Shown piece after piece: positions 49,240-58,749 of a stretch of 64,000 nucleotides of DNA. Source of the DNA: a virus; the IMG/VR virus record IMGVR_UViG_3300033075_000468. One strand, 5' to 3'. Position 1 is the stretch's first letter. Every line of letters begins with the position of its first letter. The position numbers and the translations under genes were made by a program. The notes below the pieces were generated by a model that was given only the letters and a program-made list of their open reading frames with translations, ran no database searches and was not told where the DNA came from.

Positions 49240-49653
49240 ATGAAGGTATGTTCTTACTGCAAAATAGAAAAGCCAATTGAGTGTTTCTCTCGAAAAGGCA
49301 ATGGATTGCAAAGCGTGTGCAAGGAATGTCATGCTTTATATAGGAAGAACCACTACAAGATTAACAAACAAAAGTATATTGATAAGTCCTCCAAGTGGAA
49401 AACTCAGCAAAAAATTGAGTTTTACAATTGGTTGGCAACAAAACAGTGTCAACTGTGCGGAATAAATGACTTTAGAGTCCTAGAATTCCATCACAAAGAC
49501 CAAACCAAGGAATTTGAAATCTCTCAAAAGGTAGGATTGATAAAATTATCAACTCTACTGGATGAGATAGCTAAGTGTAGTATATTGTGTGCGAATTGTC
49601 ACAGGATCGAAACTAGTAAACAATTTGACTACTATAGCTACATGCGGGTGTAA
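49240..49653 (+). CDS. HNH endonuclease with a Zn finger. Its 3-prime end overlaps the tRNA-Gly 5-prime end by 10 nt.
   Basis: It has CxxC...CxxC followed by FHHKDQ...LCANCHRIETSKQ. Confidence 0.75.
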   Translation: MKVCSYCKIEKPIECFSRKGNGLQSVCKECHALYRKNHYKINKQKYIDKSSKWKTQQKIEFYNWLATKQCQLCGINDFRVLEFHHKDQTKEFEISQKVGLIKLSTLLDEIAKCSILCANCHRIETSKQFDYYSYMRV

Positions 49654-49716
49654 CTCAATTGGCAGAGTGTCGGCCTTCCAAGTCGAATGTTGAGGGTTCA
49701 AATCCCTTCGCCCGCT
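49644..49716 (+). tRNA. tRNA-Gly(TCC).
   Basis: Hand fold: gcgggtg-ta-actc-aattggca-gagt-g-tcggc-cttccaa-gtcga-atgtt-gaggg-ttcaaat-ccctt-cgcccgc-t. Confidence 0.85.
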
Positions 49717-49837
49717 CGGTGGAAGAAGAAGATTTATTGAATAGAGGCATGACACATGCATGCCTAAAGTGTGGCTCTAGGCAATCTGGCAGCAACAAAT
49801 TATGTTATGATTGCAAAAAAGAAGAGAAAGAGAAGTA

Positions 49838-49862
49838 GCGGGTTCGAATCCCGTGTGCCGTT
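49838..49862 (+). pseudogene. tRNA 3-prime fragment (T-arm plus acceptor strand only).
   Basis: It reads gcggg-ttcgaat-cccgt-gtgccgt-t with no upstream D or anticodon arm. The GSNP translation accounts for the spurious ORF at 49811. Confidence 0.3.
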
Positions 49863-49864
49863 CC

Positions 49865-50062
49865 ATGAGAGATAAGCATGAGATTTTAGTAAAGTACGTA
49901 GGTGTTGGTCCAGATCACGCCACATTCATAAGCGCTGGTTCAGATGAACTACCATTTGGTAAAACTGAGTTCTTTGATATGCCTTTACCAATATGGCACG
50001 ATATGGACAATCCGCATATTCTAACTCTTACGATAGTTCCTGGGGATCAACTTAATGGCTAA
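49865..50062 (+). CDS. Hypothetical protein; start trimmed to the first ATG after the tRNA fragment.
   Basis: ORF MRDKHEILVKY..., 65 aa. Confidence 0.3.
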   Translation: MRDKHEILVKYVGVGPDHATFISAGSDELPFGKTEFFDMPLPIWHDMDNPHILTLTIVPGDQLNG

Positions 50063-50405
50063 AGAACTTGCTTTCTCCATTACGAAGAAAGATTTCAGGT
50101 TCGATTACTTTAGGGCTGGTGGACCCGGTGGGCAAAATCAGAATAAGCGTGACACTGCGTGCAGAATTACTCACATAGAGTCAGGAATTTCTGCTGAATC
50201 TAGAGAATATCGGACGCAGTTAGAAAATAAGCAAGCGGCATTCAGAAAGTTAACGTCAAAGCCACAGTTTAGGGCCTGGATAAACCAACAACTAAATGGT
50301 TTATTTAAAGAGTCCCCTGAAGAAGTTGTAGAAAAACAGATGGCGAGAGACAATTTATTAATTGAATGTCGTGATGCTGATGGTTCATGGGTTTCCATGG
50401 ATTAG
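50055..50405 (+). CDS. GGQ-motif peptidyl-tRNA hydrolase, RF-1 domain or ArfB-like.
   Basis: FRAGGPGGQNQNKRDTACRITHIESGI matches the class I release factor / ArfB GGQ domain. It is 116 aa with a basic C-terminal region. Confidence 0.65.
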   Translation: MAKELAFSITKKDFRFDYFRAGGPGGQNQNKRDTACRITHIESGISAESREYRTQLENKQAAFRKLTSKPQFRAWINQQLNGLFKESPEEVVEKQMARDNLLIECRDADGSWVSMD

Positions 50406-50410
50406 TTTAT

Positions 50411-50484
50411 GGGGTGGCATGTTCCAAGGCTGGCGAAGCGCACTTGCAATGCACTTGTGGGCAGTTCGATTCTGCTCTGCTCCA
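50411..50484 (+). pseudogene. Degenerate tRNA-like sequence, possibly Ala(TGC), overlapped by ORFs.
   Basis: It reads ggggtgg...gcgca-cttgcaa-tgcac...ggcag-ttcgatt-ctgct-ctgctcc-a, 74 nt. The acceptor pairs through G-U wobbles but the D-arm is poor. Confidence 0.3.
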
Positions 50485-50506
50485 CTTAATTCTACGGAGG
50501 ATAAAT

Positions 50507-50677
50507 GTGTCTGATTTCGATTGGGAAGATAGCATAGAACGCATTCGTGCTATCACAAGCGATCTTAGAGTAGCAATGGATAGATTAGATTCAGCATTTG
50601 ATATTGCTGAGGCCAGAGACAATGAGCAAAGTAAGCTTATTAAAGAAAAAGTCAAAGGAATAGTATTAGCTACTTGA
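50507..50677 (+). CDS. Hypothetical small protein with a GTG start.
   Basis: GGAGGA lies 5 nt upstream of the GTG. The ORF track extended this ORF upstream across the tRNA-like sequence. Confidence 0.3.
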   Translation: MSDFDWEDSIERIRAITSDLRVAMDRLDSAFDIAEARDNEQSKLIKEKVKGIVLAT

Positions 50678-50685
50678 TAGATTTT

Positions 50686-56953: not shown

Positions 56954-57097
56954 ATGCAGGTTTCTGATGCCAGAATGAGAGAGATGGGCAAGGATCTTTA
57001 TGCGGTGTCGAGAGATACCACGGTTCCTGAACATCTTCGTCAAAGAGCAGCGGGTCATAGCCAGTTCATCTATGATAAGCTGCATGAGAATAAGTAA
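56954..57097 (+). CDS. Hypothetical small protein.
   Basis: ORF MQVSDARMREMGKDLYAVS..., 47 aa, with AAGGAAA 7 nt upstream of the ATG. The track ORF started inside tRNA-Glu. Confidence 0.3.
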   Translation: MQVSDARMREMGKDLYAVSRDTTVPEHLRQRAAGHSQFIYDKLHENK

Positions 57098-57104
57098 GTA
57101 ATCA

Positions 57105-57165
57105 GGAGAGTTGGCAGAGCGGACTATTGCACTGGTCTTGCTATGTAATAGACGCCAGTATAGTC
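57105..57165 (+). pseudogene. 5-prime fragment of a tRNA-Ser-like gene (acceptor 5-prime strand, D-arm, start of anticodon arm) that continues into a long hairpin.
   Basis: The sequence ggagagttggcagagcggactattgca matches 19 of the first 20 nt of the intact tRNA-Ser at 57532 (ggagagatggcagagcggccaaatgcg). No T-arm or 3-prime acceptor follows, and the nuclease gene starts at 57173. Confidence 0.4.
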
Positions 57166-57172
57166 TACTGGT

Positions 57173-57526
57173 ATGGACTCCCGTACAAAGCTGGGGAGCC
57201 TAGCAGAACTAAAGGTAGCTGCTGAACTATTATCACAAGACTACGAAGTATTCGTTGGTTGGGGTGGGAAAACCACATGTGATTTAGTCGCCATCAAAGA
57301 CTCAGAAATATTGAGAGTTCAGGTCAAAGGAACTGGAACACAAAGTAAGTCTGGAAAATGGATAACGCAACTCAAGTCAGTTAGGTCAAACAGAACAAAG
57401 AACGTTATATATCCTTTCGATTCAACATTGTGTGAAATCGTAGGAATCTATATAGCACCAGAAGATAGAGTAGTTATATTAAGCTCGGAAGAGCTACATG
57501 GTAAAAGTGAAATAAGAATAACATAA
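57173..57526 (+). CDS. PD-(D/E)xK nuclease, Hjc or restriction-endonuclease-like.
   Basis: [30 protein letters not shown] fits the Hjc-type E..D-x-[VI]..K nuclease core. The gene is sandwiched between the tRNA-Ser 5-prime fragment and the intact tRNA-Ser. Confidence 0.55.
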
Positions 57527-57531
57527 TACTT

Positions 57532-57616
57532 GGAGAGATGGCAGAGCGGCCAAATGCGAGCGCCTTGAAAGCGCTAGACTCGAAAGGGTCCGGGGGTTCA
57601 AATCCCTCTCTCTCCG
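57532..57616 (+). tRNA. tRNA-Ser(TGA), class II.
   Basis: Hand fold: ggagaga-tg-gca-gagcggccaaa-tgc-g-agcgc-cttgaaa-gcgct-agactcgaaagggtcc-ggggg-ttcaaat-ccctc-tctctcc-g, 85 nt. Confidence 0.85.
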
Positions 57617-57677
57617 CTGCACATAATAACCGGCCATGACTAGAAAGATGGGCTACCTAAAGGGGTATGTCTGCTAG

Positions 57678-58235
57678 TTGGGGCACGACGAAAGGAATAC
57701 TGTGCTTACACAAGAAATCATTGAACATATGAAGGAATTCTGCCTTAATGAAGATAAGATGCTTTGGCAGATGGGCGACTATCTTAATGAGCACAAGCTG
57801 ACAGACGAGGAAATTGAAAAGCTTGCTGATATCGTTCAGCGCAAAGCTTCTACACTTCGTCAGCGTGAAATGGTGGCAAGAGAATTCCAGCCAGAAGTTC
57901 GTAACTATAATCATGCATGGTCAGTTTATAAAGAACTAATGAGAGTTAAGGGGAAGGATTCCCGCCAAGAACTTCTAGATGGTAGAAATGAATGGACTGT
58001 TGACTCTATGAAGTCGGCAGTAAATGATTTCATTTCATCACAACCTAGTGATGGTTCGGGGCGTAATAGAATAGGTACACCGTTAGGTGGTGCAAGTGCA
58101 GGCATGAGAATTGGCAATATTCTCATTCGTGGCACTGAGCAGAATGGTGAATTAACAATCACCATTGATAAACCATTATCTGATATTCAAACCCTTTCAG
58201 GAAAGCAGTCCACCACTATCATCTGTCATGTCTGA
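57678..58235 (+). CDS. Hypothetical protein. The ORF-track start is a TTG; a GTG at 57702 with AAAGGA upstream is more likely.
   Basis: ORF of about 177-185 aa. Confidence 0.4.
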   Translation: MGHDERNTVLTQEIIEHMKEFCLNEDKMLWQMGDYLNEHKLTDEEIEKLADIVQRKASTLRQREMVAREFQPEVRNYNHAWSVYKELMRVKGKDSRQELLDGRNEWTVDSMKSAVNDFISSQPSDGSGRNRIGTPLGGASAGMRIGNILIRGTEQNGELTITIDKPLSDIQTLSGKQSTTIICHV

Positions 58236-58662
58236 TCATTTCAGTAGCCTAGTAAGAAGTAGAAGGCTTGAATTAGGGCTGACTCAGATAGAATTATCTA
58301 GACAGATGGGTGTGTCTAAAAGTGTTATTGCTAAAATGGAGCAAGGGTTAACTCGTTCTATTTTATCCACCAGAATTCATTTTTTTACTAATCCACCACT
58401 TCTATTTTCTAGAGAAATTGTTGAATCTTGGTGCAGCACTAATAGAGAGTGTTCAATAAAAGGTTGTTCAAAGCCAGCAGAAAAACGTACCGTATGTGGA
58501 ATGCATTACCGCAGATGGCAAAGAGATGGAGATTTGCGTGGGGCAGATAGAGAACGGCCCTCATATGTAGACTCAATCTGCTTGATTGTCGGATGCGGTC
58601 TTAAACCTCATGGGCAAGGGTTATGCGATAAGCACTACATGCAATTCTTAAGAAGTCGATAA
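58228..58662 (+). CDS. HTH (XRE-like) DNA-binding domain fused to a duplicated actinophage-type HNH-like Zn motif.
   Basis: It has LGLTQIELSRQMGVSKSVIAKME (HTH) and two copies of C-x4-GC...[GR]-x-[GV]-x-C-x2-HY-x-[RQ][WF]. The start is trimmed to the internal Met after the overlap. Confidence 0.5.
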   Translation: MSDHFSSLVRSRRLELGLTQIELSRQMGVSKSVIAKMEQGLTRSILSTRIHFFTNPPLLFSREIVESWCSTNRECSIKGCSKPAEKRTVCGMHYRRWQRDGDLRGADRERPSYVDSICLIVGCGLKPHGQGLCDKHYMQFLRSR

Positions 58663-58670
58663 GTAAGGTA

Positions 58671-58749
58671 GGAGGGTATGGCATTGGTTGCACTGGTGAA
58701 AACCAGCGGGTGCTTCGGTGCCCCCAGGGTTCGAATCCCTGGCTCTCCG
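58671..58749 (+). ncRNA. Anticodon-less tRNA-like RNA: tRNA acceptor and T-arm combined with two tetraloop hairpins.
   Basis: It reads ggagggt-at-g-gca-ttggt-tgc-a-[ctggt-GAAA-accag]-c-[gggtgc-TTCG-gtgccc]-c-caggg-ttcgaat-ccctg-gctctcc-g. The acceptor pairs over 7 positions (two G-U). The anticodon position is a GNRA-capped hairpin and the variable position a UUCG-capped hairpin. Confidence 0.45.

Follow-up and report, generated by a model that had tools for sequence, protein, structure and literature searches.

A transfer RNA (tRNA) array carried by the viral contig IMGVR_UViG_3300033075_000468 (IMG/VR) has probably been colonised repeatedly and independently by free-standing homing endonucleases, with the array serving as both target and landing pad. 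The window, meaning the whole 64,000-nucleotide (nt) stretch analysed, encodes nucleases that are assigned by sequence to at least four families: phrog_2255-type HNH proteins (three genes), HNH_3-type proteins (two genes), an I-Ssp6803I-like PD-(D/E)XK endonuclease and a LAGLIDADG endonuclease. An initial annotation had proposed that HNH genes interleaved with the tRNAs at 49240-58700 use tRNA genes as homing or insertion targets. This proposal is supported by comparison with L160, a related contig with intact junctions in place of nuclease genes, and by four resident tRNA genes of the window that are broken exactly at nuclease cassettes. Our observations concern the anatomy of these insertions, their presence/absence polymorphism among relatives, the fossil tRNA pieces beside them, and a family-wide bias of HNH open reading frames (ORFs) towards reading into the next tRNA.

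Three plus-strand genes, here named HNH1 to HNH3, form the largest group. HNH1 (49240-49653; 137 amino acids (aa)) matches phrog_2255 with an E value of 1.6e-31 and is called identically in sibling contigs, HNH2 (54161-54487; 108 aa) matches phrog_3106 (E 1.6e-28), and HNH3 (55457-55828; 123 aa, or 137 aa from a start at 55415 inside tRNA-Leu) matches phrog_2255 (E 3.1e-28). The Pfam HNH profile PF01844 is sub-threshold for all three (E 0.01-0.2; 12-16 bits against a cut-off of 21.4), the match covering the whole model in HNH2 and HNH3. Residues C70, C73, H85, C117, N119, C120 and H121 (HNH1 numbering), which include two CxxC pairs, are invariant in the three proteins, and the C-A-N-C-H motif is kept across their IMG/VR homologues. 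Judged by superfamily profile and catalytic residues, HNH1 to HNH3 constitute one HNH family. No solved-structure homologue of the phrog_2255-type HNH was detectable by sequence.

Four paralogous HNH genes had been claimed at first, of which those at 49240, 54161 and 55457 do belong to one family. The remaining ORF (58165-58662, plus strand, probable start 58228) contains HTH_3 and Zn-ribbon repeats and resembles the N-terminus of the protein encoded at 47293; since profile searches found no HNH catalytic domain in it, it is not a fourth paralog, and its sequence points to a regulator or to the remains of an HNH gene of the 47293 type. The further HNH gene upstream, also noted initially, was confirmed as HNH_3-type (47293-47805, plus strand, E 3e-8), and a second HNH_3-type gene lies on the minus strand directly downstream of tRNA-Pro (41367-41870, E 4e-7). 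For the latter gene the start is uncertain: there is no canonical in-frame start after the tRNA, and the sole ATG-initiated ORF (41367-41954, minus strand) starts 4 nt upstream of tRNA-Pro and spans it. The PD-(D/E)XK nuclease reported within the array was likewise confirmed, as a gene of the I-Ssp6803I family (57173-57526, plus strand) with a PF11645 match of E 3.2e-14 and a weak match (E 1e-3) to PDB 2OST, which we take to be I-Ssp6803I. The LAGLIDADG endonuclease gene (60946-61281, plus strand, PF00961 E 1.8e-8) ends 7 nt before tRNA-His (61289-61360).

The three HNH proteins share 30-33% pairwise identity (bit scores 30-56); with homologues from unrelated viral contigs, the identity of each is 44-52% (77-115 bits). 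Being closer to outside homologues than to each other, they are independent arrivals, or at least very old, contrary to the earlier suggestion that the HNH genes had expanded within the array.

The three HNH ORFs were confirmed to stop about 10 nt inside the next tRNA, with TAA in tRNA-Gly for HNH1, TAG in tRNA-Gln for HNH2 and TAG in tRNA-Ile(UAU) for HNH3, in each case at tRNA nucleotides 8-10. These nucleotides (U8-A9-G10) read TAG or TAA in 17/22 tRNAs of the window, and the exact 10-nt overlap arises because ORFs lacking a stop of their own are in frame with this triplet. The juxtaposition had been read as precise targeting; the 10-nt figure is instead the tRNA's own TAG, and elsewhere the family stops at other tRNA positions. 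At the 5' side the fit is flush as well, with the ATG of HNH1 and the GTG of HNH2 each directly following the TAA of the upstream gene (Rv2632c-like in the case of HNH2). The ATG of HNH3 lies 2 nt past the 3' end of tRNA-Leu(UAG), so that HNH3 fills the entire gap between tRNA-Leu and tRNA-Ile(UAU). Taking the HNH genes of the window together, their stops come from three live tRNAs, one tRNA fragment and one old ligase end; stops taken in this way from downstream "host" sequence favour an insertion history over a purely regulatory origin of the overlaps. The PD-(D/E)XK and LAGLIDADG genes have their own stops, 5 and 7 nt before tRNAs, and the small ORFs between array tRNAs stop 4-38 nt short of the next tRNA.

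Read-in was then surveyed in 80 IMG/VR loci carrying HNH homologues, about half of which have tRNAs within 6 kb. Homologous ORFs enter the next tRNA in all three frames, stopping at tRNA positions 8-10, 9-11, 12-14, 13-15, 24-26, 36-38, 40-42, 43-45, 48-50, 63-65 and 79-81, and the tRNA start always falls 6-16 residues past the C-A-N-C-H motif, at the natural end of the protein. After removal of spurious control ORFs running through upstream tRNAs, and over 76 viral contigs other than the window, 20/32 HNH-like ORFs located just upstream of a tRNA were found to end inside it, as against 7/47 other ORFs (Fisher p = 2e-5; the loci were chosen for carrying HNH and not for overlap, and are not phylogenetically independent, making the p-value indicative only). 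Read-in of HNH genes into tRNAs is a real, family-wide bias. An HNH-independent sample, assembled through the RF-1-domain protein, gave only 8 usable ORF/tRNA pairs from 40 loci. Among named phages, the HNH gene gp120 of Streptomyces phage Jada overlaps tRNA-Met gp121 by 13 nt, and an unannotated homologue in Klebsiella phage KP12 enters tRNA-Arg.

By exact-protein look-up, the same phage was recovered from activated-sludge and other metagenomes in many contigs with 99-100% identity. The more distant L160, a 72.7-kb contig with about 75-80% nucleotide identity and conserved gene order, was found by a homologue search with the 100-aa protein encoded upstream of HNH1. Other queries were less productive: the 136-aa Rv2632c-like protein led to no relatives in IMG/VR, the RNA ligase search gave one relative contig that ends before the array, and an exact-match search of JGI metagenomes with the intact tRNA-Ser junction returned two unrelated contigs sharing that tRNA segment only.

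The initial annotation had called for relatives to be checked for empty sites, and L160 has intact junctions without HNH2, HNH3 and the 47293 HNH gene. At the HNH2 site of L160, the stop of the upstream gene is followed by 8 nt and then tRNA-Gln; the window swaps these 8 nt for the ORF alone, and its tRNA-Gln(UUG) (54478-54551, plus strand; ARAGORN and Rfam) is orthologous to that of L160. At the HNH3 site, L160 has a 12-nt spacer between tRNA-Leu(UAG) and tRNA-Ile(UAU), the type II tRNA-Leu(UAG) of the window (55372-55454, plus strand; ARAGORN and Rfam) again being orthologous to its L160 counterpart; HNH3 is also absent from the siblings L098/L099, which have a different, 162-aa HNH in its stead. 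The 47293 HNH gene is wholly absent from L160. The original 3' end of the RNA ligase gene now forms the last 21 nt of this HNH gene (47785-47805, encoding ...DLEESS*), and the present end of the window ligase (...DAEEIA*) is a diverged duplicate of that sequence.

A further slot, between tRNA-Ile(GAU) and tRNA-Leu(UAG), was found in three states. The window has a 191-nt spacer; L098/L099 carry a 162-aa HNH_3-type gene whose stop falls at positions 8-10 of their own 75-nt tRNA-Leu(UAG); and L160 carries a 103-aa phrog_2255-type HNH that starts 3 nt after tRNA-Ile(GAU) and extends 51 nt into tRNA-Leu(UAG). As is characteristic of homing genes, the nuclease genes are sporadically present at the same locus among close relatives. 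Contigs L111-113 were considered as siblings lacking the PD-(D/E)XK gene and rejected, since the gene call is absent but the sequence there is identical to the window.

Four resident tRNA genes are broken in the window (Gly, Ile-UAU, Ser-UGA and Pro-UGG), and at 4/4 of them the insert contains a nuclease gene together with an intact tRNA that has the same anticodon and a different sequence. The genes adjoin or lie inside a conserved target that is disrupted or diverged in the carrier, as is also typical of homing genes. At the Gly site, L160 has a 63-aa ORF followed by tRNA-Gly(UCC), and the window has HNH1, a divergent tRNA-Gly(UCC) (49644-49717, plus strand; ARAGORN; Rfam 67.1 bits), a 120-nt spacer and a fossil 3' end of the resident tRNA (49838-49865, plus strand) that comprises T-arm, acceptor 3' strand and CCA. 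The fossil is orthologous to the 3' end of the L160 gene (L160 10500-10575), and BLAST homology to L160 resumes at 49842. The companion tRNA-Gly is 63% identical to the L160 resident, near the level of unrelated tRNAs, and is therefore probably not its ortholog. The tRNA-Ile(UAU) companion of HNH3 (55819-55893, plus strand; ARAGORN; Rfam 69.7 bits) is likewise unrelated in sequence to the L160 resident (63% identity). The fossil 3' half of the resident tRNA-Ile(UAU) begins 4 nt after it, starting just past the anticodon, running to the 3' end (55898-55935, plus strand) and matching L160 at 38/38 positions.

At the Ser site, the sibling L106 lacks window positions 57141-58687 and has an intact, well-folding tRNA-Ser(UGA), of which the window retains a fossil 5' half (tRNA positions 1-35; 57105-57140, plus strand). 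The 1.55-kb cassette (57141-58687) cuts the tRNA after anticodon position 35. It contains, in order, the PD-(D/E)XK gene, a replacement tRNA-Ser(UGA) with the resident's anticodon and different stems (57532-57617, plus strand; ARAGORN and Rfam), a 185-aa ORF without family match in profile searches (57678-58235, plus strand), the HTH/Zn-ribbon ORF, and a degenerate copy of the tRNA 5' half. This copy opens a pseudo-tRNA-Ser (58670-58753, plus strand) that starts 7 nt after the end of the HTH/Zn-ribbon ORF, lacks CTT in its anticodon loop, and is identical to the 3' half of the L106 tRNA from about 58701; it forms no cloverleaf and gave only a 25.7-bit tRNA-Sec match.

The Pro site lies on the minus strand. 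A 621-nt insert (41370-41990), absent from L160, holds a different tRNA-Pro(UGG) (41877-41950; ARAGORN and Rfam) and the HNH_3-type gene. It splits the resident tRNA-Pro(UGG) after the anticodon stem, at position 43/44, leaving a fossil 5' part with acceptor through anticodon arm (41991-42035) and a fossil 3' part with variable loop, T-arm, acceptor and CCA (41337-41369), both located by alignment with L160. The TAG stop of the HNH gene consists of the first 3 nt of the 3' fossil.

Fossil pieces were also sought more widely, as strict orphan T-arms outside called tRNAs in a set comprising IMG/VR loci L002-L080, the T5 locus L108, L160 and the window. There were 97 such T-arms in 79 sequences, compared with 4 in shuffles, nearly all on the array strand. 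Those of T5 coincide with annotated "tRNA-like stable RNAs", and many of the orphan T-arms may be tRNAs missed by ARAGORN.

A homing scheme would account for these arrangements; its cleavage specificity, passenger-tRNA resistance and expression mode are what we infer. During co-infection, a nuclease would cut a tRNA gene, or the adjoining junction, in a genome without the cassette, and recombinational repair would copy the cassette in, the conserved tRNA sequence acting as both target and homology. Two products are observed. One is an ORF-only insertion that exactly fills the spacer from the upstream stop or tRNA 3' end to the next tRNA, as at HNH2 and HNH3. The other is a nuclease gene plus a divergent same-anticodon tRNA placed inside the resident tRNA, the halves of which are left as fossils, as for Gly, Ile-UAU, Ser-UGA and Pro-UGG; the passenger tRNA, presumably nuclease-resistant, would take over the lost function. 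HNH ORFs lacking a stop read into downstream sequence, where beside a tRNA the first in-frame stop is often U8-A9-G10, and such ORFs fit cassettes whose right junction is the very end of the coding sequence. The nuclease genes are probably expressed from a long tRNA precursor transcript, in which RNase P cleavage at tRNA +1 would strip the stop codon and may hold nuclease levels low. It is quite possible, and proposed here tentatively, that resident tRNAs are invaded without introns by cassettes that bring a divergent, presumably cleavage-resistant replacement of the same anticodon, the old halves then serving as homology arms for more homing.

Several points weigh against colonisation by homing endonucleases. 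L160 and L106 alone supply most of the empty sites. HNH2 and HNH3 adjoin intact tRNAs and do not lie inside them, and cleavage of tRNA genes by the window enzymes is a prediction from sequence. Orphan T-arms are not enriched beside HNH-associated tRNAs in the same set (4/28 versus 58/434, p = 0.78), and the fossil pattern is accordingly documented for this phage lineage only. Breakpoints at tRNA borders would also be expected if selection preserves tRNAs while spacers turn over. Finally, for the closest studied homologue, the HNH protein of Pseudomonas phage PaoP5 (42% identity), the reported requirement is in DNA packaging and not in homing (PMC13083879).

The overlaps could instead be kept by selection for regulation and owe nothing to insertion history. 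RNase P processing would yield a non-stop nuclease mRNA, and a toxic nuclease would be made only from unprocessed precursor, or be tagged and degraded. Such control has been proposed for T4 segB, with a similar proposal cited for F-TflI and F-TflII of T5 (PMC2330249), and the specificity of the read-in bias for nuclease ORFs, together with the stand-alone GGQ/RF-1-domain protein encoded in the array, is in keeping with it. The 47293 HNH gene and the minus-strand HNH gene, however, borrow their stops from a non-tRNA sequence and a dead fragment, as would be expected of cassettes with no stop codon of their own; the PD-(D/E)XK and LAGLIDADG genes terminate on their own 5-7 nt before tRNAs; and the score of the RF-1-domain protein, 35.6 bits, is far under the 100-bit cut-off for ArfB. 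We consider regulation unlikely as the source of the pattern, although the two explanations are compatible and a SegB-type brake would apply here too. Chance and compaction, by which ORFs continue for a few codons once mutation removes their stop and the nuclease genes are inert passengers, are improbable. Non-nuclease ORFs of the array also end just 4-8 nt before tRNAs, a stop triplet at positions 8-10 is common, and the shared frame of 3/3 HNH genes has a chance probability of about 1/9; yet HNH read-in is about fourfold that of other ORFs across unrelated phages, and compaction leaves unexplained both the polymorphisms and the same-anticodon replacements beside all four broken tRNAs.

The HNH proteins might also be working phage proteins, for example terminase cofactors for packaging like the PaoP5 HNH or those of the HK97 gp74 type. 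PaoP5_050 is 42% identical to HNH1 and lies in a tRNA cluster, with the large terminase gene 2.4 kb downstream, and loss of the PaoP5 HNH results in empty capsids (PMC13083879). In the window there are three divergent copies in one genome, each absent from close, otherwise syntenic relatives; among the listed ORFs of 40.5-64 kb, of which a subset was Pfam-scanned, no terminase came to light, and the neighbours are tRNAs and small ORFs; and the PaoP5 gene is itself not conserved within its genus (PMC12846349). HNH1 to HNH3 neither adjoin a terminase or portal gene nor are conserved among relatives, as a packaging factor would be, and a packaging role is highly improbable because the copies are dispensable and divergent and no terminase was seen nearby. 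It is hardly credible that the Ser and Pro inserts are self-splicing introns with endonuclease ORFs, leaving the interrupted tRNAs functional. The splits are nearly clean, at a cost of 0 or 3 nt, the PD-(D/E)XK gene belongs to the I-Ssp6803I family, and the two tRNA-Pro halves are still mutually complementary. Against this, Rfam detected no group I or II intron over 40-64 kb at E<=0.1 and no Intron_gpI in the Ser cassette (57050-58800) at E<=10, each insert holds a complete second tRNA of matching anticodon, the 3' copy of tRNA-Ser combines an anticodon loop of 4 nt with a 5' half that is duplicated and degenerate, and the Pro insertion at 43/44 is outside the anticodon loop. Repeated colonisation by homing endonucleases is the reading we retain.

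Across the whole window, ARAGORN at default settings called 22 tRNAs, of which 19 are on the plus strand between 49644 and 63678. At least 17 had initially been counted at 49240-58700; ARAGORN supports 15 there and the Rfam tRNA model 13 of these (49-70 bits), Met 51557 and Asn 51698 being called by ARAGORN without Rfam support. The figure of 17 is reached only by counting weak or partial pieces: a weak candidate for tRNA-Ala (50414-50485), which ARAGORN gave at relaxed settings, and the fragments or pseudo-tRNAs at 49838-49865, 55079-55095, 55898-55935, 57105-57140 and 58670-58753. A search for strict T-arm motifs placed orphan T-arms at 49838, 55079, 55910, 58725 and 61753, and at 41348 on the minus strand. 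The other array tRNAs, all on the plus strand (ARAGORN/Rfam), are Val 50686, Met 51557, Asn 51698, Glu 52069, Arg 53417, Phe 54642, Leu-CAA 54931, Ile-GAU 55106, Leu-UAA 56390 and Glu-UUC 56859; to the right of 58700, ARAGORN called Asp 58861, His 61289 and two Lys beyond, also on the plus strand. The ARAGORN call of tRNA-Ile(GAU) at 1349-1427 (minus strand) lacks U8, is far from the arrays and is probably a false positive.

Further tRNA-like pieces were observed. An odd 92-nt element at 53635-53726, just upstream of the Rv2632c-like gene and conserved at L160 16289-16370, has a good acceptor stem and T-arm and an over-long, variable middle; ARAGORN names the L160 copy Thr(AGT) and finds the window copy at relaxed settings only. 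At 61753-61785, 18 nt past an unusual tRNA-Lys(UUU) (61663-61735), an orphan T-arm with acceptor 3' strand forms the first codons of a VWA-domain ORF (61753-62829) and may be another tRNA fossil. The 94-nt spacer 55006-55099 ends in a tRNA 3' fragment (T-arm at 55079), and in L098/L099 it is swapped for 151 nt that encode a 50-aa Zn-ribbon ORF (L099 1405-1555). In L115 and L116, a patch of single-nucleotide polymorphisms (SNPs) at 56298-56464 covers the end of ORF 55960-56382 and tRNA-Leu(UAA), in which changes are paired across the anticodon stem (56416-18 with 56430-33) and the acceptor stem (56391 with 56460); this is an alternative tRNA-Leu(UAA) allele within the population. In L111-113, about 55 SNPs and a 6-nt indel occupy the last 350 bp of the Band_7 gene (60588-60935), abutting the LAGLIDADG gene on its upstream side in 4.6 kb that are otherwise almost identical; the cluster looks like a co-conversion tract or target-site divergence beside a homing endonuclease.

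GC content is about 43% in the window, where the coding strand changes near 43.5 kb. Comparison with cultured phages by megablast revealed no close relative, the matches being tRNA-sized only. In and around the array are two WhiB-like genes, a Thy1 gene, an RlaP and RNA-ligase pair and an RF-1/GGQ-domain gene, the same set as reported for mycobacterial and phage "tRNA array units" (PMC5966550). The array belongs to an uncultured lytic phage, probably an actinobacterial one. The pair of RlaP nucleotidyltransferase and RNA ligase genes (45209-47264) lies just upstream of the array, its ligase gene assigned by profile match (46002-47264, plus strand). The GGQ protein is encoded inside the array (50055-50405, plus strand; profile match) and has RF2, RF1 and then PrfH as its best sub-threshold NCBIfam matches, with ArfB weak. 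The pair and the GGQ protein together suggest an RNA-repair or ribosome-rescue module travelling with the tRNAs; stand-alone RF-1-domain genes typically accompany tRNA arrays of actinobacteria and phages (PMC5966550). A promoter and terminator scan of 43-62 kb gave counts at shuffle level and one weak plus-strand terminator-like site, and so offers no positive evidence for transcription units in that interval. Near-identical siblings carry a 2.9-kb insert (L081 5238-8164; L094 653-3579) that the window lacks at 51923/51924, with ORFs of 221, 83 and 268 aa and a NAMPT/NAPRTase gene for nicotinamide adenine dinucleotide salvage; the NAMPT gene is also present in the more distant L160.

Why phages carry tRNA arrays, and how these gain or swap tRNA genes, is a long-running question. 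Together with its metagenomic relatives, the window gives a natural before-and-after series, where cassettes of several nuclease families fill gaps, break tRNAs and deliver replacements, and the L160/L106-type and window alleles are concrete substrates for asking whether homing nucleases drive tRNA turnover. Should the pattern prove general, selfish nucleases would rank among the main forces by which phage arrays acquire and turn over tRNA genes, and stop-less ORFs entering tRNAs would be the scar of repeated end-trimming at insertions. For gene calling and annotation, nuclease ORFs that terminate within tRNA genes are to be expected. Since the principle was already set by T4 SegB and the T5 heg genes, what is gained, in practice and in concept, is moderate.

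These two phages provide the closest precedents, and the architecture is not, as first supposed, undescribed. T4 SegB cleaves tRNA genes at the T-psi-C motif and drives inheritance of the T4 tRNA region, and maturation of tRNA-Arg cuts the segB transcript between last codon and stop, which is thought to down-regulate SegB (PMC2330249). This cut places the segB stop at the 5' end of the tRNA, and like the window genes segB is a free-standing nuclease gene in a phage tRNA cluster with its stop at or inside the next tRNA 5' end. Unlike them, SegB has the GIY-YIG fold, for which profile searches gave no match in any window nuclease (HNH, PD-(D/E)XK and LAGLIDADG), and it is one gene compared with seven or eight in the window; a split resident tRNA with a linked same-anticodon replacement is not described there. 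In T5 (NC_005859), hegC reads 14 nt into tRNA-Ser2, hegD 23 nt into a pseudo-tRNA-Gln and T5.069 24 nt into tRNA-Asn. As in the window, HNH ORFs (hegC and hegD encoding the F-Tfl HNH endonucleases) are interleaved with tRNAs, in a region that also has a pseudo-tRNA and tRNA-like RNAs. By the annotation of the record, the T5 proteins carry the InterPro domain IPR010902, and they fall into another HNH subfamily; tblastn of HNH1 to HNH3 against the T5 tRNA region gave no significant similarity (E 0.03-0.7), and only the 162-aa HNH of the sibling contigs matches T5 hegA (E 3e-12).

I-Ssp6803I shares PF11645 with the window gene at 57173, with weak direct similarity (E 1e-3). It targets the tRNA-fMet gene at the anticodon loop, where the tRNA-Ser of the window is also split. 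I-Ssp6803I resides in a group I intron of cyanobacterial tRNA-fMet, and splicing restores the tRNA, whereas the Ser cassette has no detected intron and function appears to be restored by its second tRNA-Ser. PaoP5_050 resembles HNH1 (42% identity over 122 aa) and lies between tRNAs in a tRNA cluster, but its ORF terminates on a stop of its own, about 330 nt short of the next tRNA; the PaoP5 HNH has been reported to act in packaging and to be degraded by Lon (PMC13083879). In mycobacterial and phage tRNA arrays, HNH is the most widespread coding sequence, accompanied by RF-1-domain and XRE/HTH genes (PMC5966550), and HNH genes have been implicated in the diversity of tRNA repertoires in mycobacteria, plasmids and mycobacteriophages (PMC5966550; PMC6409571). 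ORF/tRNA overlaps, empty sites and tRNA fossils are not reported in those array surveys; the HNH, RF-1-domain and XRE/HTH genes of the array units are all present in the window. Nucleases in phage tRNA clusters, tRNA genes as their targets and ORFs ending in tRNAs are already established. The density and diversity of nucleases in one array, the quantified read-in bias, and the combination of a nuclease and a spare tRNA within a resident tRNA appear to go beyond what is known. In the searchable literature we found no description of a nuclease and a same-anticodon spare tRNA inserted together in a resident tRNA, and this spare-tRNA-plus-fossil signature may be a new variant.

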